Below, piece by piece: positions 1 to 24,000 of a stretch of DNA of 64,000 nt (the stretch's first letter is position 1; the number at the start of each line of letters is the position of its first letter). The DNA lies in the NCBI GenBank assembly GCA_964545575.1, contig CAZJFL010000001.1, positions 221,812 through 285,811 on the forward strand. Direction: 5' to 3'. This DNA comes from an uncultured Planctomycetales bacterium (GTDB taxonomy: Bacteria; Omnitrophota; Gorgyraeia; Gygaellales; Profunditerraquicolaceae). The translations under genes and the position numbers were made by a program. Under the pieces are notes generated by a model. The model saw only the letters and a list, made by a program, of their open reading frames with translations, made no database searches and had not been told where the DNA came from.

Positions 1-3000
1 GGCGGTCTGCCGGAGCATTGGCTGTCTCAAGGAAAAAGGTTTCACCCGTAGCCAGCGCCTGACAGGCAACCGGCAGCATCATATTTACCAACCTATCAAT
101 ATAATATTGCCTTCCCTGGTCTTTTGCCTTAGAATCCTTAAGATAGCCCTTGCTCCTCAAGAACTCCTCAATCATTTTCTTAAAACGCTGGTAGTCCATT
201 TTTTTCTTAATCTCCCTGATCTCATCACGTAGAGAGCTCAATTCCCCTGCCAGTTTATCCATCACTTCCTCCGGGACTTCTTCTCCCTGCTGGCTGCGCT
301 GGGTTGCCTCCTGATATTCATTCTCAGCCTTATCTACGGCAAGATTAAACTCGGCCAGTTGCTGCTTTAGATCTTCGGCTGACTCAGCCACGTCGAACCT
401 GCCCACATCATAATCCGCAAGCAGGCGATAGTGGAAAGGCAGGCGGCTACGCATACTGTCTACGCTCAGAGAGAAGTAGCGATGGCGTATTTCCGGGCGC
501 GCCTGCGGATTAATCTCATCATAGACATCGTAGTGGCGCTGCTCCAGGGCGAGCTTAAGAGCCGGCAGAATCTTGATAATATTTTCTGGCAAATCCTTCT
601 GGCGAGGCTCGTCATTAATCATGACTAATAAATCCTCGGCGATCTTCTCCCTATTCACTTCTTGTGCCTGGTCACGGGGCAGGCGCAAAACTTTAAAACC
701 GCATTTGACCTCATGGCCGTAAAGATGGTTCAAGAGGATAAAGATTGAATTAAAAGTCCTTTCCAGGCGCGGCAGGGTCAAGGACGCGGAATCAAAGCCT
801 AAGATGAACAGGATTATTGCCCCGACTAAGTCATTAGACGGCCAGTCCCCGCAGAAGCCGAGGGAAATCTTTTTCTTGGGGTCTTGGATCTTTTGATTAT
901 GCCGTTTGATCTCATTTGCCAGCGTAGCTAACATACGGATGAGCGAGATAGCCCGGTTATTCAAACTATCAAACCACGGCGCTCCCATCATCATCCTGTC
1001 CACGGCTTTGGTAAATTGTAATTGGTCGTTGCCTCCGACAGAACCAAACCCTATGCCTACTTCAATGAACGGCCGTATTTCAAAGGCCTGCGGCGTTTCA
1101 TTCATTATCCCTATTGTGATTTTATTTCTGTCTAAACCGACCTCATCAATGACCTGCAGAAGATCCACGAATTGTTGCGGGTCATACACTACCGGCGCAA
1201 AAATCCTGATCAGATAGCGATTTTTATCTACCAACGCCTTTATCGCCCGTAACTGCATCTTTAGGATCCGCTTATCATCAAGCATCATCCGGATGCCGCG
1301 GTATCCGGCCATGGGGTCGCGGTCTCTTACCACGCGGGAACCGGGCAGTTTCTCCAGCTCATCGCTCTTCCTGTCATCCAGGCGGCCAAAGAGGTACTTC
1401 TTGATCTGCTCGACAATTAAATATAAACAGAACTTATCTTGCTCTGCGGCGCGTTTATATAGCTGCTCGAATTTTTCCAGGTAATAGTGCGGGCCTTCCG
1501 GAACGGCTTCTGCGCCATAGGCGATGCCGGTCAATTGCGCCAAAAGCGTGCTTTGGTGTTCAAGGGCAGTCTGGCGGTAGGCTTTTTTATACATTTCTGC
1601 CAGCTGCATTGCTTCTTCCTGAAGCCGGGGATCGTTAATCTGCTGGGTCAATTTCATTAAGACCTCGGGCCAGACGCGGAATGTCTCGCTGATGCCTTCC
1701 AGGCCCCGGGAGAGTATCTGAATGTAGCGCTCTTCTGCCGATAACCAGCCCGAGGTAATCTTATCAAAAAACTCTATCAGCTTTCTGTCTTCCGATTTGT
1801 CCGGCTCATAGGGCTGATGCTCGGGATCATCCAGATAAGCCTTGTAGAATTCAAGGCCGGAGGTAATCTGCTCTTGGCTGCCGGCCTGCGCCGCCACAAT
1901 GCGCTTCTCTAATACGCGCAACTTCAGGTGCGCTAATTCGCTGTGCCGGGCAAGAGCCATACCCAGCCAAGCCCGCTCTTGCGCAGTCAGCCCTTCGTTA
2001 TCCATTTTCTTCAACATATTAAGATAGCGGTAATTATCGTAGCAGATAGCGCCTTCAGGGGCACAGCCAATCAGGCCGAGGAGCTGTTCAAAGCGCACCA
2101 GCCCGGAAACATAGGCATCAGGGCGCTTGCCTCCAAAGGGGCGCGCCTTTTGCGCGGTATCCGGTGCGTTGATATTTAAACCCAGCCTAAAACCTTCGGG
2201 CAATAAAGGCAATTCATCTACATTAAAATCATTACCCACGGGCTTGAGCTTATCCGAATGGTCTCCGGCAAAAATAATGCCTTTGCTGGCTACTACCGTG
2301 ACTTTACGGCCGTTATATAATTTGTTCAGGTCCGGAAGGCCGGTAATCACCACCCATCCGAACTCCGTCGCCATAATCGCGGTATGCGACTGCCTGCCGC
2401 CGACTAAAGTGACAATTGCCTTTGCCTGATGCATCGCCACATCCATATCCGGAGTCCCTTCTTCGGTAACCATAATTCTTCCCTTGACCTTATACCAATC
2501 CTGCGGCTTATTCTTAAAAGTCCAGATCACCCGTCCGGCTTCAGCGCCTTCACTGTGGAAGGTAGGGTCTTCATAAAGTACTAAACCTTGCTGACGCAAC
2601 ATCTCAACGTCCTTCTCGCTCATATCCTTGTATCTTAAGAAAATAACCGCGGGGTTCTTCTGGTTCCGGCTTGTCTCAGGCCTGACCTGCGTATAAACGA
2701 AGACATACTGATAGCGCGGATTTCCGGCATGGTCGCGGGCAATGCCGTCCGGTTGATTCGGGTCTTGGACATAGAGCGGCCTTGTCTCCCGGTCGCGCCT
2801 GATCACTAACCCACCTTCATAATCCTGATACATATCAAAGTATTCATACATCGTGCGGGCTACCAGGCCCATCTGGCCCAAAAGCTCCCAGTCAGTAGTT
2901 ACCGGCTTTCCTTTCAGCGCCTGGGGAAACTTTAAGGTAATCAGGCCGGCATCCTTCTCTTCACCATCTTGATTTTCCGTAGCGCCCAAGACATTAGGCA

Positions 3001-6000
3001 CCTGCCACGCCTGCCTGTCTTCGGAAATCTGATACTGCCTTAACTCTCCGTTAAAACGCACAAAGGCATTATCCGTGGTGGCTTTATTAGCCACAATGGC
3101 ATTAGCCGCACCCTCCACTAAACTCAAGTCTAATTCCGGCATACCGGTGTTGCGGTTGACGCCAAAGCCGACACAGCCGATATCAAAAATCCCCATCTGC
3201 TGGAACACCGAGCTCATTTTCACATTATCATCATAGATAGGAAACGGCGGGACTTGCTTCAGGCGGTAATCAATACTGCGGAAGTTAAATAATGAACGCT
3301 GATTCGCCAGCCACTCTTTGACAAATAGGTCTATTTCATCCTCTGTTACCGGCCCGATCACGGCATCCTGAAGCTTTAACTCTTCTACTAATGCCTTTAA
3401 TACCGCGTTCCAGGGTTCAACCGAAACACCCCATTTAGAGGCGTCGAGATAAAGAGAGATCTCCGCCGCTTTCATCGCCTCAACAATTATCTTTAATTTC
3501 CCCCAGGGGTCAGGCTGCTGAGCGAGTTTTGCTTCTGTGTCGGGGATATTAATCTTACGGTTGCCCAGAATCGCCAGCACCTTAAGGATCATCACAAAAA
3601 GCGAAGTATCCTGCCTGCCGGCAAAAGAAGCGGCTTCGCTATCTTCGCCCAGAGCAGAACTACGGATTGCCAGTATCAGGAGCCTCTCTGTAACCCCCAG
3701 GCGCTCCGCCATCTGCTTTAAACTTTCGCGCATCTCCTGAATTAAATCCGGGGCAATCTTGGCCTTACCCCATTCTAAATCTGCTTTGAACTTTTGGGAG
3801 CACTCGGTAAGCAAAATAAAGTACTGCTTGGTGTATTCCGGATCCTGTTTAGCTTCCTGGTCGCTGATTTGCTCTTTTGTTTTATTCTGCTGGTCGGCTA
3901 ATCTTTGTTTAGCCTGATCAATCAGGACGGGTAATTTTCTCTGGAGTTCTGCGGCAAGCGCTTTAAACTTCTCATCGTATCCGGGATTGGCAGCGATGAG
4001 CTTATCCGAAAAAGCCCTGCCGGCAGTAGCCAGGGCAGCCAAGGTTACGGCGCCCGGCGCATCCATCATCATCCCGGTATAGCAGGTCTTTCCGCCGAGT
4101 AAAGCAGCATCGCGGGCATCCACTTCATAGTCCCAGACAATGGTGCGGTCTTTAATTAAATCCTGATCCGCCAGATAATGGCCTTTCATCAGGAAGGTGG
4201 CTGTCCTGTCTTTATACTTATCAGCAGGGTCTTCTCCTTCGGGAGGGGCCTGATATTCATTGACTACGATCAGGCCGGGGTAATCACGGGCAATTGTCCT
4301 GAGCAACTTTTCTGCTGCTTCGGGCGTGAACGGCTCTCCTTCGGGAGTGCAGAGGGCAAAGAAACCGAACTCCCGGACTAATGCGTCTAAGGCTTGCCTG
4401 GCCTTAAATGAGCGGGTACGCTCCATCTGATCAATGAGCCATAATTTTTTCTCTGCGTCGGTGAGGAAGCGTTTTTCGCTGCGGATTTGCTGCCTGAGAT
4501 TAAAAAGTTTGATTGCATCTTCCAGGCGGTTCTGGTTGCCGGTGGCTTTACTTACCTGCGCGATACGGTTGACTACTACCTCTTGCTTCGCTATATCATC
4601 GGTTGAGGTATGCCTATCTCTTAAGTATAAGTCAGTTAAGATCCGAACAAAAAGCCCGGGCTTGACGCGCCTCATCCCTAAGCGCAACAGGTATTCCATA
4701 AAATCTAATTCGATGTAAGCAGTTTTTCTCCTTTTATCTACTGCGTAATGGCGTTCCCCTAATTTTCCGGAACGCACCAGGATGATCCGGGTATCTTTGA
4801 GAAGATCCGCCAAATATTGGAACTCTCCCTTACCTAAATAATGACGCAAGAAGTTGTAGGCTAAGGGTATGATCTTGGTGTAGCGCGGCAGGTCTAATCT
4901 GCCGACAGGAACATCTTCCATATTAGGGAAGCGGGTGGCATTGATAAGCAGGAGATCGCCGTTTCCTAAGACAAAGGCGCCGTTGTATTTAGTCAGCCAC
5001 AGCCTTCTTCTGCCCCTCTGGTATAAACCGACTTCATCGCGGGCAATCAGTTCGTCTAAAGTTGCCTTATCAAAGCGAAGCGTTAATGATTTTTTACGCC
5101 GCGGGTCAAAAGCCTGCACCGCTATTTTCCAGACGTTTTTGGCAGCGGGTTTCTGCTGGAGCGCTTTTGCTTGCCGTCCTTTTGCGGCAGCTAAACCTAG
5201 GGCCATCCCGTATTCCCTATCAAGCTGCACCTCAAAGATGGAGCACGCTCCGATAAAAGGAGTTAATTCATCGGGGTGAGCATAGAAATAATCTTCGCTT
5301 AATTTGCGGGCTGACTGACAGTCTAACTTTCGGAGGAGGGCGCCTTCGATATCATGGCGGATAATATCATCAATCATCCTTTGGTAGGCTTTACCTTCGG
5401 AAGAATTTTTATCCGGCGGAGCGCGGGCAGCCACACTTTCTAAGACCGCAACTTTTCCCAGCACGGTCTCGGTATCGGCAGCCCTTCCGCTGGCTGTCCT
5501 GGTTACCACCTCAACGTATTTAGCCTTGTCGCCAAAGTAACTCTTAAACTGATCCAGTTTATCTCTGGCCATCTCAACCGCTTCGCCGGTATAAGTAGAA
5601 GGATGCGGATGGCGGGCGCTGCCGGGCTTTCCAGCCTTGAACCAGCTACGGGCATACCCGCTTATCTTCTTTATTATTTGCTCAGGCAAAGTAGGGTTGA
5701 AGTTCGTCAGATACGCAGAATATACTATTGTGGCAATACCGATAATTAGGCCAATGATTTTAATCAAAGGATGGGGATGCGCTATTTTAGGCAGAAGTTT
5801 AGCGAAGAATATATTTTCCTCTAAGGCTGTAACTACTACGAAGAAGGCAGTAGCCAGGCCGATTCTTTGTTTGGCTGCGCCGATGGCTGCGCGCATAGCT
5901 AGAGCCGGGTCCGCATATCTGGCTTTAGATTCAGGAAGATAGGCCTTGGTCAGGGCCTTGGTGCCGTAAGGCCCGAGGCTGTAGAAGGCAATCGAGGCCA

Positions 6001-9000
6001 AAACTAGCAGCCCGACAACCCAGAAAGGCTTAATCATCGGGGCAAGAGAAAAATCAAATATAGCATTGCCTTTGGCAAGAAGCTTGCCCGGCAGATATAC
6101 AGTCAAAACTACTAACACCATGTGCCAGAAACACGACCCCACCACCACCATCAGCGGATCCGGCCTTGGTCCGCGTTCTAATTTAGCGGCGGTAGGGCTG
6201 GGATTTCCGCCGCGCTGCATCAGGTGGCCCATAAAGATGATGTAGAGGCCGTAGAATAAATCTACCCCTATCAAACAGGCATAGGCGATGGCAGTGGCTT
6301 TGTTAAGGTGAATTAAAGATGTCAGGTATTGCCACGCCAATTTATGCTGCATAGCAGCGAGGGTAGTGATAATACCGATTAAGGTCATGCTGTTTAAGGC
6401 CCACTGGTTGATATTGGTGGGCATCAGCTTAAGGTACTTGGCGAGCCTGCCGAAAGGCTTAGCCTCATCTAGAGCAAGCTTAGGCTTACCTGCTTCAACT
6501 GCCACCTTTTTACTGCCTCCTCTGATGATTATCTCCGTAATAATCATCGCCGGTATATTGACCGCGGCAATAAAGAGAGAAACTTCGGTGTTAGTAACGC
6601 CGGTAGTCTTTACGGCAAAGAAGGCTAAAGAAAGGGCGATCAGCGGCTGCAATGCCCCTACGATAAGCCATGCCAGCCAGTCGCGCTTCCACTCTGCGTT
6701 AAAAGAGTTATCTAATTTTAAAGCTTTATATATCACGTAAGGTACGAATCCTACCGCCAGCCACGCCCTTCTCGCCCCTTTATACTTAAACAAATCTTGC
6801 CTTAAATCTTTGAGGAAGGTGGGATTTTCTTTAGCTATGGCTTTGATAAGCTTGTAAAATAGGTAGCTGATCCCCGGCACTTCAGTCCAGGCGCTTCTCC
6901 AGAAGCAGATCCGCATAAAGTGATAAATAGTGACTAGCGGAGCGCCCATAGGCAGCTTCTTGGGGAGCAGGAAGACCTGGCATAAGCTGGAAGCGATGGT
7001 GAGGATAAAGAATACGGTCAGGGAATGTTTATCTTCGAAGATATTTTTGAGGAAGGACTTTATTGTTGTAACAATAGGTGGCGCGTTGGTCTGTTTGGAC
7101 CAGAAGAATAAGGCGATGAAAGCAAAAGCAGAAATCCCCAAGGCACGGCCTAAACCAAACGCAGGAACAGTAAAACCTCCCTGCTGCCCGGCAAAGAGCG
7201 GGGCGATGAAGGCGCTGGCGAGGAAGCCGATGATCGCGATACTGAAGAACTTTGGATAAGTATTGGTGCGCCTGGGATAAACTGGCGAAGGTCTAGCTTG
7301 CGGATTCTCTGTGATAACGTCACCTTGACTATGCATATCCTGATTTAATTTTACCCGATGATTCCTGCGGCCTAAGTATTTGCCTAAGGGGCCGGCAAAA
7401 ATTAAGCCTGCTATCGATAAAACGCCGAATACAATACTCAATGTAATAGGTAATGGCGAATTAGCTGACTTGGCAGTGGTTTCTGCACCTAATGGTACTC
7501 CTTGCGCCAGAGCAGGCAGAAGCAGCATGGCGGCGATGGCGATGCAGGCGAGGGTGTGGCGGTTTGTGCTAGTCGGCGCCTGGGCCACAGCAGAAGGCAC
7601 TTCTCTATCAATCGCATCCAATTTCAGTAAAACCCTGGCAATTCCCTCCCTGACCCCCGGCCTAGAACTATTTGTCTGAATATGTGCCAGGACCATACGA
7701 AAAGATGGACGATTAACGCACTGCCTATAAATAGTTACTAATAACTCTTCTGCCGTCGCTGCTACTTGGGGTTGGGAATCAGCTAAAGCACCGCCGGCTA
7801 TAGCCCCGATTGCGATTTTCATGTGTACAGGGGTAAAAGCGGCCATCTGCGGTATCAATGGCTTTAGCCTCTCGGCCGTGCGGAGGCTGCATTTCCCTAA
7901 TACACCCACGACTGCCTTAATTTCCCCGTCATTAACGAACTTGGCGCCTTGTACAATTAATCCTCCAGCTAAATCAGCGGTCTTTGCATCAAAGTCATTT
8001 TGTACATTTTGTAAAGCGTTAAGCAGAAGATTGATGGTATGGTGTGCCTCAGGCGGATTATTGTGCATGCGGCCTCTTAACTCTTTGCTCACTGCCTCCT
8101 GGTACGATAGATTACCCAGATAGCGTACTAACTCCGCCGAATTCATCGCGGATATATCGGATATCTTGGCTGAGCCTGATGGCGAAGAGGAACGGGGTTT
8201 TACTGGAGTAGGATGCAGCCTGGCCGGCGAGAGGCGGCGATAAAATATTCCCCCCACCATCAATCCTGCCAGCGGCAGCGAGCCGGCGGCTAGAGAGTGA
8301 TGGCCTAAGAGCCAGAACGCTGCCAGCGCCGCGGCGCCGAGGAGGGCTAAAATTATATACGGACCCGCGAAGATATCTTTGCGTTTTAAGGCATGGCGGC
8401 GGTAAATTGTTACAGCAAGGAAAACTACTCCGGCGACAACTGCGCCAATACTTATCCAGAATATTATATTGGCAATAGTTAAGGCAGTGCTGAACGGCCC
8501 ACCTAGACTGCCCCAGCCATCTGATGCTCTGTGTACGCCATCGATAATACCATTAGCCCCCTTGACAATATCGACTTTTTGAGTGAGGAATAAAACCGGC
8601 GCACCGGCAAAGAAGGCGGGGATAGCGCCTCTGATGCCATCCGGAAGTCTATCTATAATTAGCCTTAGTTGCTTTACTAGCCTAAAATATTCGGTCTTGT
8701 TTCTGGGTATTCCGTATTTTCCCGCGCCTTCTTCCTGACGGAATCCTAACTTGTATGCCTGCATGCTGCGTAAAATATCGTCTGCCTCTAAGATGCCTTT
8801 AATTGTATTTAGAGATAATACCTTGGCTCTCTTAAGAACAAAACTCCACATGCCCTCCTGGCCAAAATTGTCTGCTCCTAATAAGGTAACCGGCAAGACC
8901 TGCGTGGGTGACGGCGTCGCAGTAATCACCAGCATATCCCCTTCTTTCATTTCGCCTATCATCGTGGCATAGAAGTCAACGTGGGTGCCGTGCGTCCTTT

Positions 9001-12000
9001 CGGGATCCAAATATTTTATCACGTGTATGGCCGGCTGCTGCTTAGCCTCTAGCGGCGTCTTGCCTATGGCGCCGTCTACAAATTTGAAATTAATAACCTT
9101 GTTACCGGCCTTTAATCTGACCCTGATAGTTAAGGTTTTCTTATCCGCGCTTAAAGATTCTTTCAAGACTCTAAAACCCTGCTTTGACAGCTCATTCCTG
9201 AAACAATCGCTGCTGCTCTGAAGCGAGGCGGGGTCAGAAAAATCGTACTTCCTCTCCAGTAAGATAACCGTCTCTACTGACGGGCAGGACTTGACTAAAT
9301 CTGCGATTCCGGCAACATCAAAATATGCTCCCGGATAATAGATTACTTTCTTATCGCTTAAGGCATCCTTGATATATAAAGAACGTAATGCTTTAAAATA
9401 ACCCTGCGTAAACTTATAACCAGGCGTTAACCTGGCCTGCCAGCCATACTTATTGTGATCATCCAATTCTTCTTCTGCCTTCAAGGCGATCATCCAAGGG
9501 GCAAGGCCTAAATATTTCTTAATTAACCTCACTACCCCGCCTGCGCCAAGATCAGATTTCTTTTGTTCCGGCTTGATATTATATTCTGGCAGAATGCACA
9601 GCAGGGCAAAAAGCTCGTTCTCTGCATCTGTGCTTTCAGGATGAGCGATGACTCTGGCTTCATGGATAAGGGTAAGTAATAATTCAGTGCGGTTTGCATG
9701 ATTATTTAGAAGGGCCTCATCGAGATCAAGAATTTTGTTGCGGTAGGTTCCCCATATATAGGTAAACGGCCCGGCGCGGGTGACGATAGTATGGCGCATC
9801 TTTTCTAAGGCTGTGGTTACGCGATGGTCTTTACTGCCTACCTTAACCCTACGTATAGCTTCCTTGATAGCAGCATCAAGATAAGTTCTATCCGTAATCT
9901 TTTTGGCCTTGGCAATATCTTCTTGAATCTGCGCCTCTGTCGGCTGCATCCCGGGCTTTTTGCGGTGCGGGTCGGCTGAGGAAGCGGCGCTGGCAGCCTC
10001 CACCATTTCTTTAGCGAACTCATAATCATACAACGGCCTGCCGTCGCTGGTCCTTAAAGTCGCCCTGAGGATATCATAGAGATGCGGCCGCTGTTCTTCA
10101 AAGGGAGTATTCAGGCCGACGATTTGCTTACGCTTACGCTCCACTGCCTGAAGCCCAAGGTAGAAGGTTTCCAGGTCAAAGTTATCCAACAATATTTGTT
10201 CGGCTCTCTCCTGCGATATTCTAGATTGCACCAGCAATCCCTGCCCGGCCGCTGCGATATCGCGCTCAAACATCTCTTCCTTTGCCTTAAGCGCGGCTAA
10301 TAATTCAGTGTGGGCTTTTTCTGCGCGGTCTGGACGCGAACTCTGCTTCTCCAGTATATGGGCGACCTCAATTAAAGCAGTGTATTTGGCAACATAGTGT
10401 CCTTTTTCTTCTCTGATCCGCTCAAGCACGGTAAGCAGGTCCACCCCTTCGCCTTCTTCTACGCCGCCTAAATAAGAGATGATTGCCCGCTTTATCATAT
10501 GCCTGCCGATATCGCGGTGCGCCTGCCAATAAGGCTTACCCTGGGCGCGGCTTACTAAAAGGCCGAAGGTCAATTCCGTGGAGAGCACTGCCTGCATGCT
10601 TATAGGCTTGACCTGCATGATATGGATAAGGTGCTCCGGGTCAAGGCAGATATCCCGCGTCCCGTCTTCTTTTCTCTTGTTGCGGTCAATGCGGCGCTGC
10701 AGGTGATGCCTTAATACGCGCTTTAACATCCTGCTGGTAATATCGGTAATGCTGCCGATTTCAGGCACGCTTTTACCTTCAAACATCTCTCTGAAGTTCC
10801 AGTCAAATTCATCGACGCAGTTTAATACCCCTTTGCCGCCGTAACGCTTTGCCCGGTTATATAACTCTGTAAGCCCTTTTAAATCCTGCTCGTACTTGGC
10901 GGGGTTATCTTTTTGCTTGGCTACAACTGCCTCCTGGATAGCTGTTAAATCTATGCCCTTTTTAAATTTAAATATCTTTAAGTCGGCTTCGCGGGGGATA
11001 TCGCCCTTCTTTCTCTCCTGGGGAATTTCGTCAAAAAGGCCAAGATAATCGTCGGTTAATTGACATGCATAAACCTGGCCGTCAGTGCGGTATAAGGCCT
11101 CTTCAAAACCGGTGGAAGCGCCCGAGGGAGTGCCGGAGACCTCTTCTAAGAACATGCTGAATTTCTTACTATTCGGCACGCCCAAATAACCCCAAATCCC
11201 TAAAGTAGGATGGCCGGTATTTAAGGGTTCCTCCATCGCCAGGATATGGGTGCAGATTAAACTCTGCATTAATTTTTCGGTATCCGCTTCCTCCTCTTTA
11301 ATCCTGGCCTCTTCTTTAGCCAAGGCATCTGCTGCTAAGCCGGCTTTCCATTTAGCATAGCGCTCAAACATCCAGCGCTTGGCCTGGTCTATCTCTTTTA
11401 CCAGCTCGGTATCTTCGTAAAGCACCCCGCGCTCTGAATTTCCTCCTCCCCCGGTCTTTTGCCCGCGCGCCCTGAAGGCCATGGATAAATGCGGCTCGCG
11501 GCCATGGAAGGGGGCCTTGGAGCGGTGGGAGATGATTACCCCGCCGCCTTTACCGTAGACTACGGTTATGGCCACATCCGTTTCCAGAGTAGTTCCGACC
11601 TGGTTGTATTTAATCAGGGCGTCGTCGATTAAGCCCATTTCAAAGGCCCATTCAATTACTGAATCTTTGGTGGTAATCAGGTCATCACCGATGCGCCTAA
11701 AGGGTATCGGTACCGGCAGGTCTATCTCAATCTTATCTTTGCCCGGGATAATCACTTTTCCGTCGGGAGTCCTTTCAAAGGCAACTACCCTGCTCTGCAA
11801 TTGCCAGCCTGAGGTATCATCCTGGGCTAAGCCGTCCTCAACCGAGAGGATCGGAACGTTCTTCTCGATGATCGCCCTGGCAATAGCCTTTAAGATATCC
11901 ACAGCATCGTATAAATCAGGGTTCTTTGCATCTAGAAAAGCCAGGTATTTCATCGCATCCTCAGCTAATCCTTTCCGCTTACGCGCCTCAAGCACCCATT

Positions 12001-15000
12001 CGCTGCTGGCGATGTCAAAGGCTATTCCTACATCTTCTCCCGGCTCCAAATATTCATCTAAACTTCCTGGCTTGTGCACCGTGCTGATTGCCAAAGTCCC
12101 CAGGCGCCAGTTGCGTTCGTCAGCAAACTTATCCCCCTCTGCCCTCTCGACGATACCGGTAACCCCTCCTTCCGGGCCTTTGCCGCCTAAAGAGCAACCA
12201 TCGGTGCTGGCTAAGAGCCCTTTATATCTATTCTGAATCGCTGTCCTTAAGAGCCGGTCTATTTCCCCGGGATTCTCGTAGAGGCGCGCGCAAAGGATAA
12301 GCATCATCATCTCCTGGGAGCTAAGGTTGGTGCGGAACTTAGGCCAGACGTGCTTAGCACCCATGCCGAAATTTAAAAAATGATGGGCAGCAGCTACTTT
12401 TTCGCCATTCATTAAGACCGTCTCCCAGAGCCGGAAAAACTCCATGTCTAAGTTAAGCCTTAAGATCTTGTATTTAAAATCCCCCTGCGCTACGGGCTTT
12501 GCCTGTTTGGTCTTGCTGTCCCTTTCTCGTTTTGCCTCCAGTTTTCCCGGGTCGGCAAAGATAAAATCCAGGAAGCTCATCTCGCAAAAACTGAAGAACC
12601 ATCTGCCGATATAAGTGAAGAAGATCATCCCTGTTAACTGGCTTAATGCCATAAATAAGGGCCCCCCTATTGCGCCGATAATACTTAACCTGCGGCTGGC
12701 CAGGCGGCCTTCGGCCTCCTGGTCTAACTGCGGCTCTGCCTCGGGTTCAAATTTAACGCCGGTCCTTTTAATCCCCGGGAAGAGCCCGAAGAAGCCTAAA
12801 TAAATCATTTCCAGGTAGAATAAAATCCTTCTTGGCCTAAGCTGTTGTTTTAAGGAAGCAATGAAGGTGAGTTTTTCCTTATTCGTCGCCTCGGCAACAA
12901 TCAGCTCGCGTTCGGCAGTCAAGGTCTTAAAGGAAAACCATTTAAGCTTCATTATCAGGCTAAACTTGAGGTCTTGATAAAAGCGATAAGGCCTCCAGAA
13001 GAAATATTTAAGATTTTTCTTTTTATGCTCCTTGAATTCGTTATCCCGGTAAAAGTTAAAATCTGTCTGCGCCTTCTTTAAATCATTCTCCATCACCTCT
13101 TTGGATTTTAACGCCCCGACCTTAATCGCCTTAAGCACATGGCCTAAGCCTTCGTGCCAGCCCACAGCCGTAGGAAAAGCCACCCCCCAGATCATAGAGC
13201 CATAAAGCGGCTGGATAGAGACGAACATAAATTTTATAATATCCGCCGGATGATTATGCCCCGGGGGCATGCTTAAGGGGGAAAAGATAAAGATTGTCTC
13301 GATACCGGAATCAAAGATATGATTACCTTTGACCCAGTTTGCCTCTAATTTCGCTCTTGCGCCTTCATAAAGCTTCCTTAAGCTCGCCAGCCAGGGCAGT
13401 TGCTGGGCGAGGTCGCTTTCTTGGGCATCCGGGGTCCCTTCTTTCTTCTCCGGACGGCGGCCTACCTCGCCGCGATAGGGCTCAAGCTCATAAATACCCG
13501 AGGCCTCCCTTAAAACCTGGGCCAAGGATTTAGCAAATGGCTGCGCTTGGAGCTTCTGCACTAAAAACATACCAGCCTTAAACAGGTCCTGATAGGCAAC
13601 ATAATTAAAAAGATAAGACCAGAGCTCTAAAGCACAGGTCTTGGCTTTATCTTGCTGATATTTCTCTAAAGCAAGCTGGATACCGGCATTATCCGGCATC
13701 AGCCTAAAGATCTCCTCGCCTACGTATTTAGCAATCGCCTTGGCTAAAACAAGGTTGGCCGTACCCCGGATGCGCTGCCAGAGTTCTTCGCCGTCTAAAT
13801 GCGCAGCCAGCCTGTTTACGGCGCCGGAGGTAACTAAGGAGATCCCTGCGCCAAAACCTAATTTAAGCTGCAGGGCCTGGATCTGCTCAAACTCATCAGA
13901 GCTAGTGCTCAGCTTTCCGCGGCGCATAGATTCGTCCCGGTCTAAGCTAAGCAATTCTTTTTCTATGTCGATCAGGCTGCCGAGTTCCAGTAAGCGCCTG
14001 CCCTGGCCGGTTTCTGCGTCGATAAAGGCAGGCCGGATATAGCGATTAAAATATTCCAGGGCCTTCTGGCAGCCCATTCCGTTAGAGCGCTCAAAACGCA
14101 CGGTAAAAAGCCTCTCCAGCTCAGGGTCCTCCTGGGCCTTAATCAAGGCCAGGGCCTCTTCCCTGTCTTTAAAGAGGCTGGCGTTAAAAGTAAAGTTGCG
14201 GGTAGTCTGGTTAAATCTAAAGAGCGTTCTATATTTAGGGTGCTCTTTGCACCAGAGCTCGTCGAAATACTTCTGCGGCAGATCGTCCATTTCAATGATA
14301 GAATCAGTCAAGACCATGGCGTCCCCGGTTGAATGGATATCCGGGATAGATAAGGCGGCTTCAAATTGCAAGAGATCAAACCATTTCTGGCTGCCGTAGA
14401 TGCCGGCAAGGACATTCAATTTAAAGGTGGGGTCTCCGGAAGCAGTGGGGTATTCGCGCGGGATTAAGGCAGTGATGCGTAAGCGCGAAGCCAAAGTTTG
14501 CGCCAATTGCTCCAGTTCTTCAGGAGGCATCTTTTTAGATTCTTTCTCCAGGCGCTTGACGATCGCCCTTTTAGTCATTTTCACCAATCTTTCGTAGCGG
14601 ATTAAACTAACCATCCCGCTTACCCCGCCTACTGCCAAAACGTTCGGCTCCAGGCCAAGGGTCAGCTGGGTCTCTAAATCGTCGTCTGTACAAAGGGCGC
14701 AGCCGCCAATGGTAACATTCAAGCCTAAGAGCCGGGCAGTTAAAAAGGCATTGATCATCTCAGTCAAGCTCCCGCAACGGCCAGGGACAAGCACCACGGT
14801 ATTGGAATTTCCTTCCTCGCGCTTAAGCCGCGCTGCCAGGTCTTCGATAGAATCATCCCGGCAATAGATAGTGGTATCGTCGGCAATAAAGAGGGTCTGG
14901 CCTAATCCCTTTTCGATTACAGCACCGCTGGCATCCCGTTCTCCATAGTATAATTTATGGCTAGTGGCAGGGTCCTTGCGGTAGCAGGGGTTCTTATACA

Positions 15001-18000: not shown

Positions 18001-21000
18001 TAATAGAGGATTTAATCGCTTGGACTATCCCGGGGCGGAATTTTAAATAGGCTAACTCTGCGGCTTTTTTCTCTTCGTAGTAGTCTATATAAGGTAATTC
18101 TGCCTGTAAATTCTCTTCGTGCGTGCCGCCACTTAACTCATGGACCGAGTGTTTAACTTGACGGTATAAAGGTAACTCACTACCATCATTGGCGTTAGTA
18201 GAGACGATGTAATCTACATCGTCATTGGCAGCATAGTAGGTGAGTCCATCCTGCTCATCTAAGATAGGTTCTGGCCCGGCGCGTAGGTGTCCACCTTTAA
18301 TCAACGCTCTTAATTTTGCCTCTTTCTCAGTCTGTCCGGTGGCCCGGTAGTATGCCAAGAGCTCTTGAGCCAGGGGATCATTCTCATCGGTGATTTGTCG
18401 GATGCCGGGGAAGTCGAAGCCTTTTGCCTTCATCCTGGCAAATTTAGCCTTAACTTGCGCCTCGGTCCTTCCTTCTCTGGGCTTGGCTGGGTCTTTTATC
18501 GACGCCTTGCGCGGGCATTCTTTACCATTAGTATTTTTACCAGCCGCTGCGGCTGGGGCTTCCTCCGGATGCAGAATCTTGTCAATCCTGGCAATAATAG
18601 CGGTGATTTCTCTTCTCTCCTGCTCATCACAGAAACCTAATCTGCCGCTATGAGTTGACGCCGCCATACCAAAAAGAATAACCAGCCTGTTGTGTAACTG
18701 CGCCCTTAAATGAGACATTGCCGCAGAATCGCCCTGTTTAAGATGAATGACTGCCGCGATATCATCTCTACCTTCACTAAGAGTAGTAGGGATGGTAGAG
18801 CGCAGTTTACCCATAGCATTACTAACTGCTTTTTTATCATAGCCTGCCTTTTTAGTTTTTTCTTTTTTAACTGCAACTTCCGGCTGCGCCGCAGAAGGCA
18901 GAGGCTTGCGCGCTTGGGCTAAATCCGGAATAAGGAATTCGGGATTTAAAAATGCTTCTTCAAGGCTCACGCTTAAATCCGTTTGCTTATTCTGGCCATC
19001 GACCATTAAAACAGCCAATTCTAACAATTTGCCTTCTAATTTATTCTTCTCCTGGGGGGCATAAGCGCTAATATAGCTTTCATACTCGCTCCCGGAGATT
19101 CTCAGCAATGCCTGACAATCAAGGGTAACCACCGCCAGTATGTTTTTCATAATATTGGCGCGAAGCTCTAATGCCGCATGTAATAGTTTTCTTGCCCTTC
19201 CCTGTTCTAAACGGCTTTCAACATCTTCTCTGCTATTACTGCTATAATGCGCTATGGCGCTTAATACTCTCTCCCGGATATTTTTCCCTGTGGGAATAAA
19301 AACACTTGGCGCCTCGCTGACAGCAGAAACAGCCGCGACTTCCTTGGGGTCATGCTGCACTGTCCCTGCTGGAGCCTCGGCTACCGGTCCAGCCACGGAT
19401 GAATCCGGTTCCCCTTGAGACGCCATTAGTGTTGATTTCGCTCTTCTTCTTGCACGCGCCCTATCAGCCCTGGACTGGCGACGGCGCAGTACGCTTCGTT
19501 TAATTGACGCCACCGCCTCATCCTTTAGCATCGCATAGAAATCTCCTTTTTTACCTAAAGCGGCTACGAGCTCGGCGAGACCGGCGCAGAGATACAACGC
19601 CCCTATAATTTCTACGATAAAAAGTGGCGTAGGCCCGAGTGAAAACGCTGCCCATGGCCTGATTACAAGAATTATAAAGGCATATACAACCACATTCGCC
19701 ATAAAGCCGCCGAATAGCGTCAGCAGACGGCCTGCAGCATGTCCGCCGGACTCCAATTTCACTTCTCCGGTATAGAATACGCCTTTTAGTCTGGCCTGCA
19801 TTTTTTGGCCGGTTATTTTCGCCATAATCATGTGGCCTAATACATGGGTGAGGGTAATTAACGTAAACATAAGGATTACACGTATAAAGGCGTTTAGAAC
19901 CGGATGGCTTTTCTTAAGGAAGCTGGCTAAGTAAAGATGTACCGTTCTATTTTTATCGGCCGCTGCGGCGGGCAATGAAGCCCTAAAGGCCCCCACCAGC
20001 CACGGAGAGGTGACCTTCCGCAGCGACCGAGGTATTTCCACTTGATACAACTTAACAAGCGGTTTACTAAAGCAATTAAACTCTTTGCAGACGATAAGCC
20101 CAATTTCTCTTGCCGCGCAGTATGCCTCGAATGATTCGCACTCACTTTTATGTATCGGGGCATAACAACCGTCGAGGTCATCGCCATGCAAAATATAACC
20201 ATGATTTTTGAGGGCCCTGATAACCGCATCAAACAACTTTTCCTTATCTGTTGTTTCCGTGGATACGCCAAGCATAATAATCGCCTTGGCTGAGTGCGGC
20301 TTGATTATAGCTTCTTCCATAGTAGTTGGGCGGTAAGAGATGCGGCCGGTGATATCTATGCCGGCGCGCTCCTTTACGGCGACTGCCGCCTCATCCACAA
20401 GCTCGCGTAGCGTATGGTTCTGCGTCCTGAATCTATTGGCGGGGTCAGAGCGAGTGTCCGGCTGAACTACGGTCACCTTTGCCCCGCAGGCTGCCGGATA
20501 AACAGCCTCTCCATACTTTGTGCGAGGACCAATGTTGATTACGCTATCGCCCCGCTTCAGGTACATTTCATCAGCTGCTTCCACAACCATGCCGGCTCTT
20601 AAAAGTTCTTTTACCTTTAAGAGTTTGGCGCGGCGCACGCATTTGACGATTAAATATACAACTATGCCTACCATAACCGTTAGGCAGATTACTAAACGCG
20701 CTACCTGCCCAAACTCTGCCTGCAGATGACTGAAGTTGAAGGGACTTGCACTGGCGACACCGACACCAGCCGCCGATAAACCAAGGGCGCATTTACCGAT
20801 CCTGGCTTTCATAAGTGCTCCCTGTACGGTATATATCCCCCCCGCAGTCCTATCCAGCTGCTGCCTGCCGAAAGAATGCCAATCAATCCGCGATTCATCT
20901 ATCGGTGGCTTATTCTTAAGCAACAATAAAATATTTATTAGTAATCTTCCGGTGCGGCCGTTGCCGTCTGAAAACGGATGGATATTAATGAATTCCAGAA

Positions 21001-24000
21001 ATGCTGCCGCCACAAATTCATAAAGCTCATCGTCCTTGGCAAATTTTTTACCTCTGATTACATTTAAGTTGGCGATAAGTGACTCCAGCTCCTCTGAAAG
21101 CTTATAGCGCAACGCAAACGGGTTCCGCGCCATAAAAGGACGGTCTTCGTTGGCCCTGAACCTCCCCATCACCCAAGACGGATTATCATCTTCATGCTTA
21201 GGGACAACCCGATTCATCTGCTGAAGCGCCTGCGCAGTAAATCCATCCTTATCTATACGCGAAAGTATTTCTCGGATTTTACCTTCCTCTACTTGCATGT
21301 TTTCGGCCACTGCCTTTATATGCGCCTGCGCAGACGGCTGCCGCTTACGCCGTGCGTGTGCACTCTCCCGCCTTATGCGTAATCCTAAAACCGTGCCTAC
21401 TGTGGCCAGCGCGCCGAGGCCAAGAATCAATTCCTGCGTCGCGCTTAAATCTATGCCGCAATATAAAACCAGCGTCACCAACCCCAAGCCCAACAGCCCC
21501 CTGCCGCTGCCGGGCAGCCGGCTCCGGATTTCGGCTAGCACATCTTTTGCTTCAGACGCCTCGCCCTCGCCGCGGGAATTGCCGTTGTCGCGGGAGATGG
21601 GATAAGGCTTATTTCCGTTATCGTTAGACACATTATTCTTTATTAGGTCATGTAAATACCAAAATAAATTAAAAGCGGCATCCGCAAAGAAAAGATACGC
21701 CACCAGAGGCATACTTTTAATTAAAGTGGCTACGCCTAAGGCGGCTGGCAATAGAATTGTGGCTAATCTCATTAAAGTTATCGAAAGCGCTTTCTCTTCA
21801 GCGAAAATAAAAATTGGCAATGCTCCGGGCCCTTTGGGTGGCCTTCGATTATTAAGAAGCCATAGGATAATAGTAATAGCTATGCTTAAGCCTGATAGCG
21901 AACTCATAAATAAATAATTTTTATCCGTAATTCCTATAAGATAACGCGCTACAATAGGCGGCAAGGCTATTCCCGACAGAATAATTAATGGAATTATAAA
22001 GGCGTACTTATGCCTGCTTATAAAGTTCTTGAGCCTTGAGGCAAGAGAAGGCGTAAGCGCTGCCTTCTCCTGCTTAGTGAGCGAGATTTGGCTTTGCGAT
22101 GAGAAGATTTCTGGCTTTCTCTCGGATGAACTCGGCTGCCTCGTTGCTGACTTCAACCCAGTTGCCAGCGCTCGTCCTGCCGCAGACTTTGCCGTCGGGC
22201 AGAATGAAGAAGTCATACTCATAGGACCAGTGGTCGTATTTGGCAGACGCCCATAACCCGCCTTTAATAGGAGTGACTCTACAAACCTCAAGATTCTGGA
22301 AGTTACACATCGGACACCTCCTTTTGTTTGTCTTGCGGCTAATAATTCTCTATCACTCTTAAGCAGCGCCTGATGGTCGGCGAAACTGTGGATATAGAAT
22401 ACTGCCGTGGCTATCAGCGGCAGAAAAGCCGACGCTTTATCTATACTGCCCAATATGTAGGCTGCCGCAAGAGATACTATCGACATGATAAAACTCACCA
22501 GCGGCCCGGCGCGTAAAGATTTCCTTGCCAGTAAATGTCCGAATTCATGGATGCCCCAGCCAACCAGTGAAATAATCAAGGAGGCCACAACGGAAAATGC
22601 CAGCCAGACCTGCCAGAGAGCGGCATATTTATTTCCCGGGCCAAGGCAGATAAAGAGCGTGCCGATTACCGCCCCCGCCAGCCACCCGCCCAAGAGGTAT
22701 TTCCAGTTCAGCTGCGGCTTAAGCGCCTCGTCCTCGCCGCGGTAGGCGGTATATTTATCCGCTACAGCAGAAAGGTATTCTGCAACATGCGCACCTACCG
22801 GATACCGCCCGCTTACTTCTATGGGCCATTTTACGGTCAAAAGGAACGCACAATCTTTAGTAGGACTGTAATTGCGTACGGTATAATAATTCCCCTGCCC
22901 CTTAAAGATAATCAAATCTGCCTGCTGCCAAGCGCGGAAAAATTCCGGAGAAATACGCGCTAAATCAGTGCCTAAGGCAATAGTGCCGGTGCCAATAATT
23001 TTTAAGCCAGCAAAATCCCGGCCAAAAATTTTCCGGATGCCTTCATCTGCCAACAGCCCTGCCAAATCTTCTCTTGTCGCATCATTAGAAGCGGGAAGCG
23101 ATTTCCCTGCAAAAGTTACCTTATGGCCAAGATTAAGCAGCTCGTTTATCAACGCTAAATCAAAAACGTCTTCGCCTACGTTATCGACTACGTACACAAT
23201 ATTCATCTGCTCGCGGAGCAATCTTTCTTTTAATTTTTCCGTATCATTCTTTTTCCAAAAATCAGCCGCGGCAAAATCACTTTCTATAATTTTCTCTACT
23301 AAAGAGAAGCCATCGGAAAGGAGCGCTTCGCGTATACGCGGCTCTGATAAATCTAAAATATTTCCGATTACGCACAAACGTAATGCCGCTTCCAAACGAT
23401 CTGGCGCCTTATTAATCAAAGTTAGCGCCTTGCCTAAAAGTGAGAATGCGGCAGTACGGATACCTTGTTTATACTGCCAGTCGGGATCAGCGAATTCCAC
23501 GGCAATGCGTATAATCTCTAAATCTACCTCTAAGACTTCATAGCTGGTCCAATCTTTTATCCGCGGCATTGCTAAGAATGTTTTGATGGCAGAGGCAAAT
23601 TTCTCCCTTACCTTTTCGTCAGGAACCGCCCTTTCCAAAAGCCTAAGATCGGTTTCACGACGCCGGTTGATTAAGTTAGTGGCAGAATCGCTACCTGCGA
23701 GCATATCTCTTATAAATGTACTGCCGTAATGATATTCGCTTGTCGGATGAGCTATCGCATTTAGCACATAGAGCTTGCTGCGGTCAAAGTATCTAATGAC
23801 ATTTTCTACGAACTCTTCAGGGCTAATTTTTCCCGCTAAAAAGCTCCTTCTCAATAATAGCGCGCTATCTTCAAAATCTTCCCGCAACAGGGCATTAACA
23901 TCTACCGGTGTCAGTAATAAAATGGCTTTGGATACCACCCAGCGCAAAGGATCAAGGTTTAACGCTGCTATATCAATACCATATTGGGCGCAAATACTAG

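Follow-up and report, generated by a model that had tools for sequence, protein, structure and literature searches.

Reading frame and setting of the locus

This locus raises the question of which enzyme lies towards the C-terminal side of a giant reading frame, and which metabolic step it would serve there. The window, i.e., the whole stretch of 64,000 nucleotides analysed here, is a single minus-strand frame without stops (64000 to 2; 21,333 codons), open at both ends, in which 41 hydrophobic segments and about 20 distinct enzyme families (recognised by profile) were found. With its very long ORF, transmembrane clusters and many metabolic Pfam domains, it has the build of the giant multi-enzyme proteins known from Omnitrophota; the sugar-metabolism domains common to both include PGM/PMM, ROK, NUDIX and GPI. 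Two features precede the module under study in the same polypeptide:

5711..8467, minus strand: transmembrane-like cluster of 13-14 hydrophobic segments (aa 18512-19430), immediately upstream of the conserved unit described below
11417..12034, minus strand: enolase-like module (Enolase_C; aa 17323-17528), the nearest recognisable enzyme upstream, about 2,400 aa from the module

PGI, PGM/PMM, RPE, ROK and RmlD domains lie further upstream of the enolase, and the ORF also carries PRK/uridine-kinase modules besides ROK, as well as NUDIX modules that produce AMP or NMP.

According to West-Roberts et al. 2023 (bioRxiv 10.1101/2023.11.21.568195), PPDK-type, FBPase, PGM and glycogen-synthase-type domains occur in Omnitrophota giant proteins ('Archaeovorins'), and a second preprint (bioRxiv 10.64898/2026.06.07.730766) terms such proteins 'multi-enzyme metabolic clusters'. 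Because PPDK-type domains in these proteins were already reported in the former, a PEP synthase module in an Omnitrophota-type giant protein is a real but incremental finding. In the accessible portions of published accounts, such modules are mentioned at the Pfam level only, and we found there neither an analysis of single residues nor a definition of the clade, a map of its insertions or a description of free-standing homologues.

We are reasonably confident that window 728-4165 encodes a catalytically competent but highly divergent PEP synthase of the PpsA type, which is built as a module into a giant, membrane-associated protein with many enzyme domains, of the kind known from Omnitrophota.

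Domain organization

The module aligns end to end with E. coli PpsA and is embedded in a longer conserved unit, as follows:

728..4165, minus strand: core PpsA-homologous module (aa 19946-21091), aligned with E. coli PpsA residues 1-792
2648..4165, minus strand: N-terminal nucleotide-binding domain (ATP-grasp, PPDK_N-type; aa 19946-20451), from Pfam and the residue map
2279..2485, minus strand: swivelling phosphohistidine domain (aa 20506-20574), from Pfam PEP-utilizers and the residue map
728..2203, minus strand: PEP/pyruvate-binding TIM-barrel domain (aa 20600-21091), from Pfam, the residue map and the AF2 model
1403..2032, minus strand: family-specific barrel insertion, mostly helical, about 170-210 aa (aa 20657-20866)
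4166..5206, minus strand: accessory domain at the N-terminal end of the conserved unit (aa 19599-19945), shared by every close homologue
2..727, minus strand: C-terminal tail of the unit (aa 21092-21333), conserved in homologues and truncated where the window ends

A Pfam scan of aa 18001-21333 identified PPDK_N (aa 20079-20353, window 2942-3766, E 1.9e-17), PEP-utilizers (aa 20506-20574, E 2e-14) and PEP-utilizers_C (aa 20868-21080, window 761-1399, E 2.7e-24). All three exceed their gathering scores and follow one another in canonical order on one chain, which is far beyond chance. The initial annotation had placed a three-domain module of PEP synthase/PPDK type at window 600-3850, inside this megaprotein; its architecture and location are borne out, and its extent has to be redrawn, to 728-4165 for the PpsA homology and to 5206 at one end and position 2 or beyond at the other for the conserved unit. 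This unit, common to free-standing homologues, runs from aa 19599 to past the window edge; the homologues extend 57 to about 500 residues beyond the point where the tail is cut.

Unlike ordinary PpsA, to which it has 26% identity over 767 columns, the core module contains ten insertions of at least 8 aa, about 340 aa in total. Three of these are located in the ATP-grasp domain (aa 20141-20198, 20204-20226 and 20397-20420), and the barrel insertion separates the first Arg motif (GLVRFE) from the second (GRLDDRKSDE). The unit further differs from ordinary PpsA in its C-terminal extension and in the additional domain, about 350 aa long, at its N-terminus. For this accessory domain (aa 19599-19945), the Pfam search gave no match; its predicted fold is weakly like that of small zincin-type metallopeptidases, and the HExxH motif is absent from it.

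Family assignment

The best NCBIfam matches are both PEP synthase models, NF005057 with 183.2 bits (equivalog cut-off, 598) and TIGR01418 with 169 bits (cut-off, 739.75). By NCBI's criterion, the module is not a PEP synthase equivalog, and because the scores fall so far below the cut-offs, the match alone is insufficient to equate its substrate specificity with that of PpsA. The best PDB sequence matches are likewise PEP synthases, namely 8a8e (1.4e-39), 9dae and 2ols, of which the first two are structures of multimeric PpsA C-terminal domains. The module resembles PpsA (EC 2.7.9.2; 2ols from Neisseria meningitidis) in its three domains and their order, the catalytic His and Cys, the barrel ligands and the ATP-grasp motifs.

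PPDK (EC 2.7.9.1; 1kbl, 1dik, 1vbg) shares the fold and the swivelling-His mechanism, and 1kbl was the top full-length Foldseek match of the AF2 model (9e-18, against 3e-17 for PpsA 2ols). In this model the TIM barrel is the best-predicted part and the ATP-grasp core sheet is weak, with pLDDT below 50 over model residues 317-511. However, the sequence profiles clearly favour PpsA: TIGR01828 (PPDK) scored 54.1 bits against a cut-off of 843.45, and the PPDK entries among the PDB sequence matches cover the His domain only. West-Roberts et al. 2023 give domains of this sort in Omnitrophota giant proteins the PPDK name.

Two further families also score far under their cut-offs. PTS Enzyme I also has a phospho-His swivel domain and a PEP-binding barrel, but it carries an HPr-binding domain and no ATP-grasp domain, whereas PPDK_N is present here and Pfam did not find the HPr-binding domain PF05524 in aa 18001-21333; TIGR01417 (Enzyme I) gave 81 bits against 341.7 and covered the barrel only. 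Rifampicin phosphotransferase (RPH) shares the phospho-His swivel and ATP-grasp domains. The PEP-binding TIM barrel that the module possesses is missing from RPH-type enzymes; the RPH model NF041857 scored 42.1 bits against a cut-off of 999, and RPH structures appeared in Foldseek at 4e-5, far lower than PPDK and PpsA (1e-17). The RPH-like action on a small molecule that was suggested for this region therefore finds no backing, as the barrel holds all ligands for PEP, pyruvate and Mg together with the catalytic Cys.

Catalytic and regulatory residues

The His motif GGRQSHTAIMATEFG occupies aa 20534-20548, exactly at the window positions first given for it (2357-2401), and the barrel motif SVGGNDQLQFTKAVDR occupies aa 20987-21002, which corresponds to window 995-1042 rather than to the slightly displaced 1010-1065 of the initial annotation. 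Within GGRQSHTAIMATEFG, the catalytic His20539 (codon at window 2384-2386) aligns with E. coli PpsA His421, the phospho-histidine of the G-G-x-x-[SC]-H motif, and is kept in all 13 clade members analysed. The C-terminal Cys21050 (codon at window 851-853; E. coli C751) and the Arg residues expected of the family are likewise present. The barrel ligands Arg20636, Arg20873, Lys20878 and Arg20901 are equivalent to E. coli R511, R578, K583 and R608, while Glu20968, Asn20991, Asp20992 and Arg21002 are equivalent to E680, N703, D704 and R714; Glu20638 is also kept in the barrel. In the ATP-grasp domain, the GGK Lys19971, Asp20393, Glu20395, Gln20438 and Arg20440 are retained, as is the motif IRSSALGEDxxxxSFAGRQ with Arg20113, Glu20119, Asp20120 and Gln20130.

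Among the 26 positions tabulated, 23 carry one and the same residue in E. coli PpsA, the module and all 13 clade members. Departures concern T419 and R427 (clade-wide), K27, which is aligned in the five closer relatives only, and a conservative change of N602 to Asp. The overall identity of these members is 33-60%, and that the catalytic and ligand residues are retained even in those near 33% speaks for selection on catalysis. A pseudoenzyme, i.e., a remnant or scaffold without activity that is kept merely as structural filler of the giant protein, is scarcely credible: bit scores well under the curated cut-offs, unmatched strict PROSITE signatures and the large share of these giant proteins without recognisable function would fit it, but the residues kept in the 13 members speak against it, as does the occurrence of the unit as a separate gene that has a ribosome-binding site of its own.

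Both PEP-utilising signatures were originally described as present, which holds at the profile level but not for the strict PROSITE patterns. In a search with regular expressions for PS00370 and PS00742, E. coli PpsA was matched correctly (residues 416 and 696) and nothing in the 21,333 aa, because the His motif has Gln for Thr and Thr for Arg and the second motif is altered at several places. The conserved Arg that follows the catalytic His in E. coli PpsA (R427) corresponds to Thr20545 here and is replaced clade-wide. The regulatory Thr two residues before the catalytic His (E. coli Thr419) is Gln20537, with Gln or Asn throughout the clade. According to a previous study, this Thr is where the DUF299 regulatory protein (PSRP) acts on PpsA (PMC8100219). 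Because it is Gln here, the module should be outside the control of that regulatory kinase.

Relatives and fusion partners

The clade is rare, with 15 clusters at E<=1e-30 among 1.84 billion. Its closest named relatives are proteins of Candidatus Omnitrophica/Omnitrophota MAGs, and one MAG is labelled Planctomycetia. Complete members are large proteins (1,800-6,750 aa), nearly all with signal-peptide-like N-termini, and the module studied here lies in an ORF that is at least 21,333 aa long, a setting that ordinary PpsA does not have. The fusion partners of some members are GAPDH, TPI, PGK, class II aldolase and enolase in P0021; GlpX FBPase, a GlcN6P-isomerase/6PGL-type domain and GluDH in P0019; TPI in P0023; and PGK, UDP-glucose pyrophosphorylase and HEAT repeats in P0162 and P0163, which are fragments sharing a 90%-identity cluster with the 6752-aa P0024. 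The clade members scanned showed neither a PFK nor a pyruvate kinase domain. The co-occurrence of these glycolytic and gluconeogenic enzymes with UDP-glucose pyrophosphorylase, and the lack of PFK and pyruvate kinase in these members, suggest that the module takes the pyruvate/PEP step in a chain of fused glycolytic or gluconeogenic enzymes.

Predicted function and direction

From these features we infer the activity of the module, its flux direction and its coupling to neighbouring modules, with the mechanism taken from PpsA/PPDK biochemistry. The N-terminal ATP-grasp domain would bind ATP or AMP, and His20539 on the swivelling central domain would act as phosphoryl carrier. The TIM barrel is predicted to bind pyruvate or PEP with Mg via Arg20636, Arg20873, Arg20901, Glu20968, Asp20992 and Arg21002, with Cys21050 as the putative proton donor. 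In the megaprotein, the module probably catalyses the pyruvate-PEP interconversion of a fused sugar-phosphate pathway, in which the upstream enolase-like module would make or use the PEP that it handles, and a PEP-forming (gluconeogenic) flux would feed sugar-phosphate and nucleotide-sugar synthesis. The PEP-forming direction is probably the likelier one, the co-occurring domains and thermodynamics being the two grounds for it; PEP formation by PpsA is favoured by about -13 kJ/mol (PMC8100219).

The same enzyme might instead run in reverse (PEP + AMP + Pi to pyruvate + ATP), using PEP from the upstream enolase to supply local ATP to the ROK and PRK-family kinases of the polypeptide, which we regard as unlikely but with some chance of being right. 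In essence, this is the supply of phosphoryl donors to upstream kinase modules that the initial annotation proposed. The enolase-like module about 2,400 aa upstream, the kinase and AMP/NMP-producing NUDIX modules in the same ORF, and the missing pyruvate kinase domain in every member scanned are consistent with it, and a glycolytic role of PpsA is on record for Thermococcales, e.g., Thermococcus kodakarensis (PMC8100219). It is opposed by the thermodynamics cited above (PMC8100219), by the GlpX FBPase, which is specific to gluconeogenesis, and the UDP-glucose pyrophosphorylase of a clade in which PFK was not seen, and by the lack of any sign here of ADP-dependent kinases as a source of AMP.

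It is highly improbable that the phospho-His, charged by PEP or ATP, passes its phosphoryl group to another protein domain or small molecule, as in Enzyme I, RPH or glucan-water dikinase. The great divergence of the clade, its insertions of about 340 aa (170-210 aa of them in the barrel), the extra N-terminal domain, the replaced Arg beside the catalytic His and the weak matches to the Enzyme I C-domain and RPH could suggest a different acceptor. However, the full PpsA set of nucleotide and PEP/pyruvate residues is kept, together with the Cys that protonates the pyruvate enolate; Pfam found neither PF05524 nor a rifampicin-binding-type domain in aa 18001-21333, and the RPH scores in profile and structure searches are those given above. 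Glucan-water dikinases have the reversed domain order and no barrel.

Membrane side

The PpsA-type module may also be considered with respect to the membrane. Signal-peptide-like N-termini occur in nearly all complete clade members, including free-standing genes, and the transmembrane cluster of the megaprotein stands where the free-standing homologues have their N-terminal signal peptide. A topology survey (bioRxiv 10.64898/2026.06.07.730766) predicts such metabolic content to be periplasmic or extracellular. All three observations hint at a placement of the dikinase and its fused sugar-phosphate enzymes outside the cytoplasm, in the periplasm, at the cell surface, or inside or at the interface of prey cells, which we nevertheless consider quite unlikely. 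In one clade member, a receiver domain at the N-terminus precedes two transmembrane segments, so its module would be cytoplasmic, and the nucleotide site is fully conserved. An ATP-dependent dikinase would be hard to run outside the cytoplasm, which would count against the PEP synthase reading if the module were exported. If true, such a placement would represent an exported ATP- and PEP-handling metabolic assembly line of a predatory or episymbiotic bacterium.

Reading frame and domain content of the megaprotein

The minus strand of the window holds a frame without stop codons from 64000 to 2 (21,333 codons, both ends open; aa positions refer to this frame), and no other frame of the 64-kb window has an open stretch of at least 250 codons. 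A plus-strand ORF of 222 aa (11568-12236) falls within this frame; plus-strand ORFs of 100-124 aa in the region of the PpsA-like module, which overlap it as well, were taken as chance. The frame contains about 41 hydrophobic segments and the following domains, from N- to C-terminus:

Minus strand: ROK, NUDIX, CofD-like, HAD/PMM, PGM, two RPE modules, GatZ/KbaZ-like, Peptidase_M54, PGI, PRK-family, RmlD, cupin-type GPI, TPR, ARMT1-like, Fic, enolase-like module, then the PpsA-like module

Judged by these matches, the frame encodes a predicted chain of sugar-phosphate and nucleotide-sugar enzymes. Pfam matches are absent over long stretches of it, such as aa 1-3900 and aa 14360-17320. Two of the domains listed lie as follows:

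Window 35858-36142, minus strand (aa 9287-9381): Peptidase_M54 (archaemetzincin-type) module
Window 20924-21241, minus strand (aa 14254-14359): Fic/DOC domain, same ORF as the PpsA-like module

The Peptidase_M54 module may bear on the self-processing that has been suggested for giant proteins. In the enolase-like module (window 11081-12034, minus strand, aa 17323-17640), the catalytic motifs of the barrel are retained (SVEDGL, GDDL, KYNQVGT, SHRS and KTG). PSGASTG, a loop motif of the enolase N-domain, is found C-terminal to the barrel (aa 17623-17640), which suggests that this module is circularly permuted or has a rearranged domain order.

Identity of the PpsA-like module

The initial annotation had recognized a PEP synthase/PPDK-like module with the PEP-utilising signatures in canonical order, and this proved correct by Pfam domains, PpsA alignment and catalytic residues. 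The Pfam scan of aa 18001-21333 returned exactly three families, in that order and far beyond chance:

aa 20079-20353, minus strand: PPDK_N (E 1.9e-17)
aa 20506-20574, minus strand: PEP-utilizers (E 2e-14)
aa 20868-21080, minus strand: PEP-utilizers_C (E 2.7e-24)

The swivel motif GGRQSHTAIMATEFG (minus-strand frame, aa 20534-20548) lies exactly where it had been placed, at window 2357-2401; the barrel signature SVGGNDQLQFTKAVDR (aa 20987-21002) is also present, at window 995-1042, slightly off the 1010-1065 first assigned. The strict PROSITE patterns for both signatures, which match E. coli PpsA where they should, have no match anywhere in the megaprotein frame; the signatures hold by profile and not by pattern.

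Residues 1-792 of E. coli PpsA (reference sequence from MG1655) align end to end with aa 19946-21091 at 26% identity over 767 columns, which places the core module at window 728-4165 (~1,150 aa); on the N-terminal side, it is somewhat wider than the region annotated at first (600-3850). Relative to E. coli PpsA, the module carries ten insertions of at least 8 aa (~340 aa together), the largest being:

aa 20141-20198 and 20204-20226: after the SFAGRQ motif
aa 20397-20420: before QVRPET
aa 20657-20735 and 20776-20866: between the first two barrel Arg motifs, as a barrel insertion of 170-210 aa

PEP synthase ranked first among NCBIfam families (NF005057, 183 bits; TIGR01418, 169 bits), followed by Enzyme I (81 bits), PPDK (54 bits) and rifampicin phosphotransferase (42 bits), all scores being far under the curated equivalog cut-offs. 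The closest solved structures by sequence are also PEP synthases (8a8e, 1.4e-39, then 9dae and 2ols), while Enzyme I was matched through the barrel only and PPDK through the His domain only.

Catalytic residues and structure model

The catalytic His (H20539), the C-terminal Cys (C21050) and the barrel Arg residues are all present in the module.

Corresponding residues of E. coli PpsA and the module
ATP-grasp: K27 to K19971; R127 to R20113; E133/D134 to E20119/D20120; Q144 to Q20130; D318/E320 to D20393/E20395; Q334/R336 to Q20438/R20440
Swivel domain: H421 to H20539
TIM barrel: R511/E513 to R20636/E20638; R578 to R20873; K583 to K20878; R608 to R20901; E680 to E20968; N703/D704 to N20991/D20992; R714 to R21002; C751 to C21050

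The position of E. coli Thr419, on which the DUF299 regulatory protein acts (PMC8100219), is occupied by Gln or Asn across the whole clade of close relatives, and that of Arg427 by Thr, Met, Gln or Ser. The remaining positions compared are unchanged in 13 relatives (identity down to 33-37%) with two exceptions, namely Asn602, which is Asp in the module and in the clade member P0014, and Lys27, which is alignable in five closer relatives only, owing to sequence trimming. Since the dikinase architecture and residues are found, whereas the NCBIfam cut-offs, the PROSITE patterns and the regulatory Thr fail, we call the module a divergent PpsA-type variant, and not a PpsA orthologue, on the strength of these comparisons.

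The AlphaFold2 model of aa 19951-21117 (input alignment of 12 sequences) was moderate (pLDDT 64.6, pTM 0.49), with a good barrel and N-terminal helical subdomain and an ATP-grasp sheet/core of pLDDT <50, and was used solely for fold-level confirmation. Foldseek against the PDB gave full-length matches to PPDK (1kbl, 9e-18) and PpsA (2ols, 3e-17) and a weaker one to Enzyme I (~1e-12); this ranking confirms the modelled PPDK/PpsA fold.

Clade, free-standing homologues and fusion partners

When 1.84 billion cluster representatives were searched exhaustively with HMMER, 3,205 matched at E<=1e-3 and only 15 at E<=1e-30, with a sharp gap between the clade (at least 195 bits) and ordinary PpsA or Enzyme I (at most 121 bits), which places the module in a rare, distinct clade. 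Its named members are proteins of Candidatus Omnitrophica/Omnitrophota MAGs, and one member is annotated as PEP synthase/PPDK in IMG. The genome contig scan found a copy at 59% identity in a MAG that carries the label Planctomycetia and represents its species (locus L002).

The nearest homologues are free-standing genes of 1,784-2,769 aa. The homologue P0001 (1,784 aa), with its own stop codon and a GGAG ribosome-binding site, shares 57% identity with aa 19599-21332 over 1,739 residues. P0012 (2,769 aa) is surrounded by pyrimidine-biosynthesis genes. The homologue in GCA_040960315.1 adjoins pyrimidine-biosynthesis genes. L002 encodes a 2,216-aa version, which has housekeeping genes as neighbours; the gene immediately upstream of it (L002:2065-9819) codes for a protein of 2,585 aa that contains PGM domains I and II, and there is an 8-nt overlap between the two ORFs.

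Beyond the PpsA core, the conserved unit comprises a ~350-aa, weakly zincin-like N-terminal domain (window 4166-5206) and a tail that leaves the window and extends 57 to ~500 aa further in homologues. Compared across these loci, the unit occurs both as a separate gene and as part of the megaprotein; no convincing ribosome-binding site was found at Met19599, a candidate internal translation start. Fusion partners in clade members are as follows:

P0021: GAPDH, TPI, PGK, class II aldolase, enolase
P0019: GlpX FBPase, glucosamine-6-P-isomerase/6PGL-type domain, GluDH
P0023: TPI
P0024 cluster: PGK, UDP-glucose pyrophosphorylase, HEAT repeats
P0017: receiver domain

Neither PFK nor pyruvate kinase was found in any clade-member domain scan.

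Proposed function and direction of flux

A complete PpsA-type catalytic apparatus sits in a fused chain of sugar-phosphate enzymes, and the module would work as a PpsA, in which, according to PpsA/PPDK biochemistry, the nucleotide and pyruvate/PEP sites would exchange a phosphoryl group carried by His20539. Given a PpsA, PEP formation is somewhat the likelier direction of flux. It is favoured by the reaction itself (~13 kJ/mol towards PEP; PMC8100219), by clade partners including UDP-glucose pyrophosphorylase and GlpX FBPase, the latter specific to gluconeogenesis, with PFK and pyruvate kinase absent from the scans, and by glycogen-synthase-type glycosyltransferases and PGM, described as abundant in Omnitrophota giant proteins in literature including West-Roberts et al. 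2023. The serious rival is the opposite direction, in which the module would regenerate ATP, as PpsA does in Thermococcus (PMC8100219), and which would fit the supply of phosphoryl donors first proposed for this module. A pseudoenzyme is strongly argued against by the unchanged catalytic positions in 13 relatives, the pattern expected of purifying selection on catalysis. Rifampicin-phosphotransferase-type activity on a small molecule, also suggested initially, is ruled out by the Foldseek ranking (only 4e-5) and the intact barrel, alongside 42 bits in NCBIfam.

West-Roberts et al. 2023 (bioRxiv 10.1101/2023.11.21.568195) had already mentioned PPDK-type domains in giant proteins of Omnitrophota, so the advance is one of resolution. 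Added here are the PpsA-type assignment, intact catalytic residues as evidence for activity, the definition and rarity of the clade, the insertion map, the loss of the regulatory Thr, the free-standing homologues and the fusion partners. If active, the module pins one assayable enzymatic step in proteins of almost wholly unknown function; with ~1,150 aa, and free-standing homologues of 1,800-2,800 aa, it is a tractable entry point to the question of whether giant proteins of Omnitrophota have genuine enzymes in their metabolic domains, to pathway direction and to membrane side, the last explicitly left open in both preprints on these proteins.

Membrane side

Nearly all complete clade members begin with a signal-peptide-like sequence, such as MRKIISLLLVFVFSFQSIAFS followed by LP. 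In the megaprotein, the position of this N-terminus is taken by a hydrophobic cluster:

Window 5711-8467, minus strand (aa 18512-19430): 13-14 hydrophobic segments, immediately before the unit

For these segments, hydropathy and positive-inside analysis gave contradictory loop charges, not decisive for the membrane side. A periplasmic or extracellular face for such metabolic content is predicted in the 2026 preprint (bioRxiv 10.64898/2026.06.07.730766); this prediction is also mentioned, and doubted, in the 2023 preprint. P0017 has a cytoplasmic-type receiver domain and then two hydrophobic segments, which would bring its module back into the cytoplasm and counts against extracytoplasmic placement. 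We give the latter a small chance; if true, a dikinase that needs ATP yet works outside the cytoplasm would be remarkable.

C-terminal edge of the window and repeats

At the window edge the frame reads FFLETANAPADR (window 2-70, aa about 21310-21333), and full-length homologues (L002:15000-16504) go on into FFLESANE..NPxMGNRG..AVDVP, collinear with PEP-binding barrel strands 2-4. This stretch may represent a second PEP-utilizers_C-like domain in degenerate form; its hhalign match was not significant (E 0.03, probability 1.7%), and the homologue P0015 has two PEP-utilizers_C stretches by Pfam.

Searches for RNA families, DNA repeats and internal protein duplication of the conserved unit returned nothing relevant. 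A 20-nt direct repeat (90% identical, window 977-996 and 4055-4074), which on the minus strand encodes an MMM-x-AP peptide in both copies (RMMMGAP, GMMMDAP), is probably chance.
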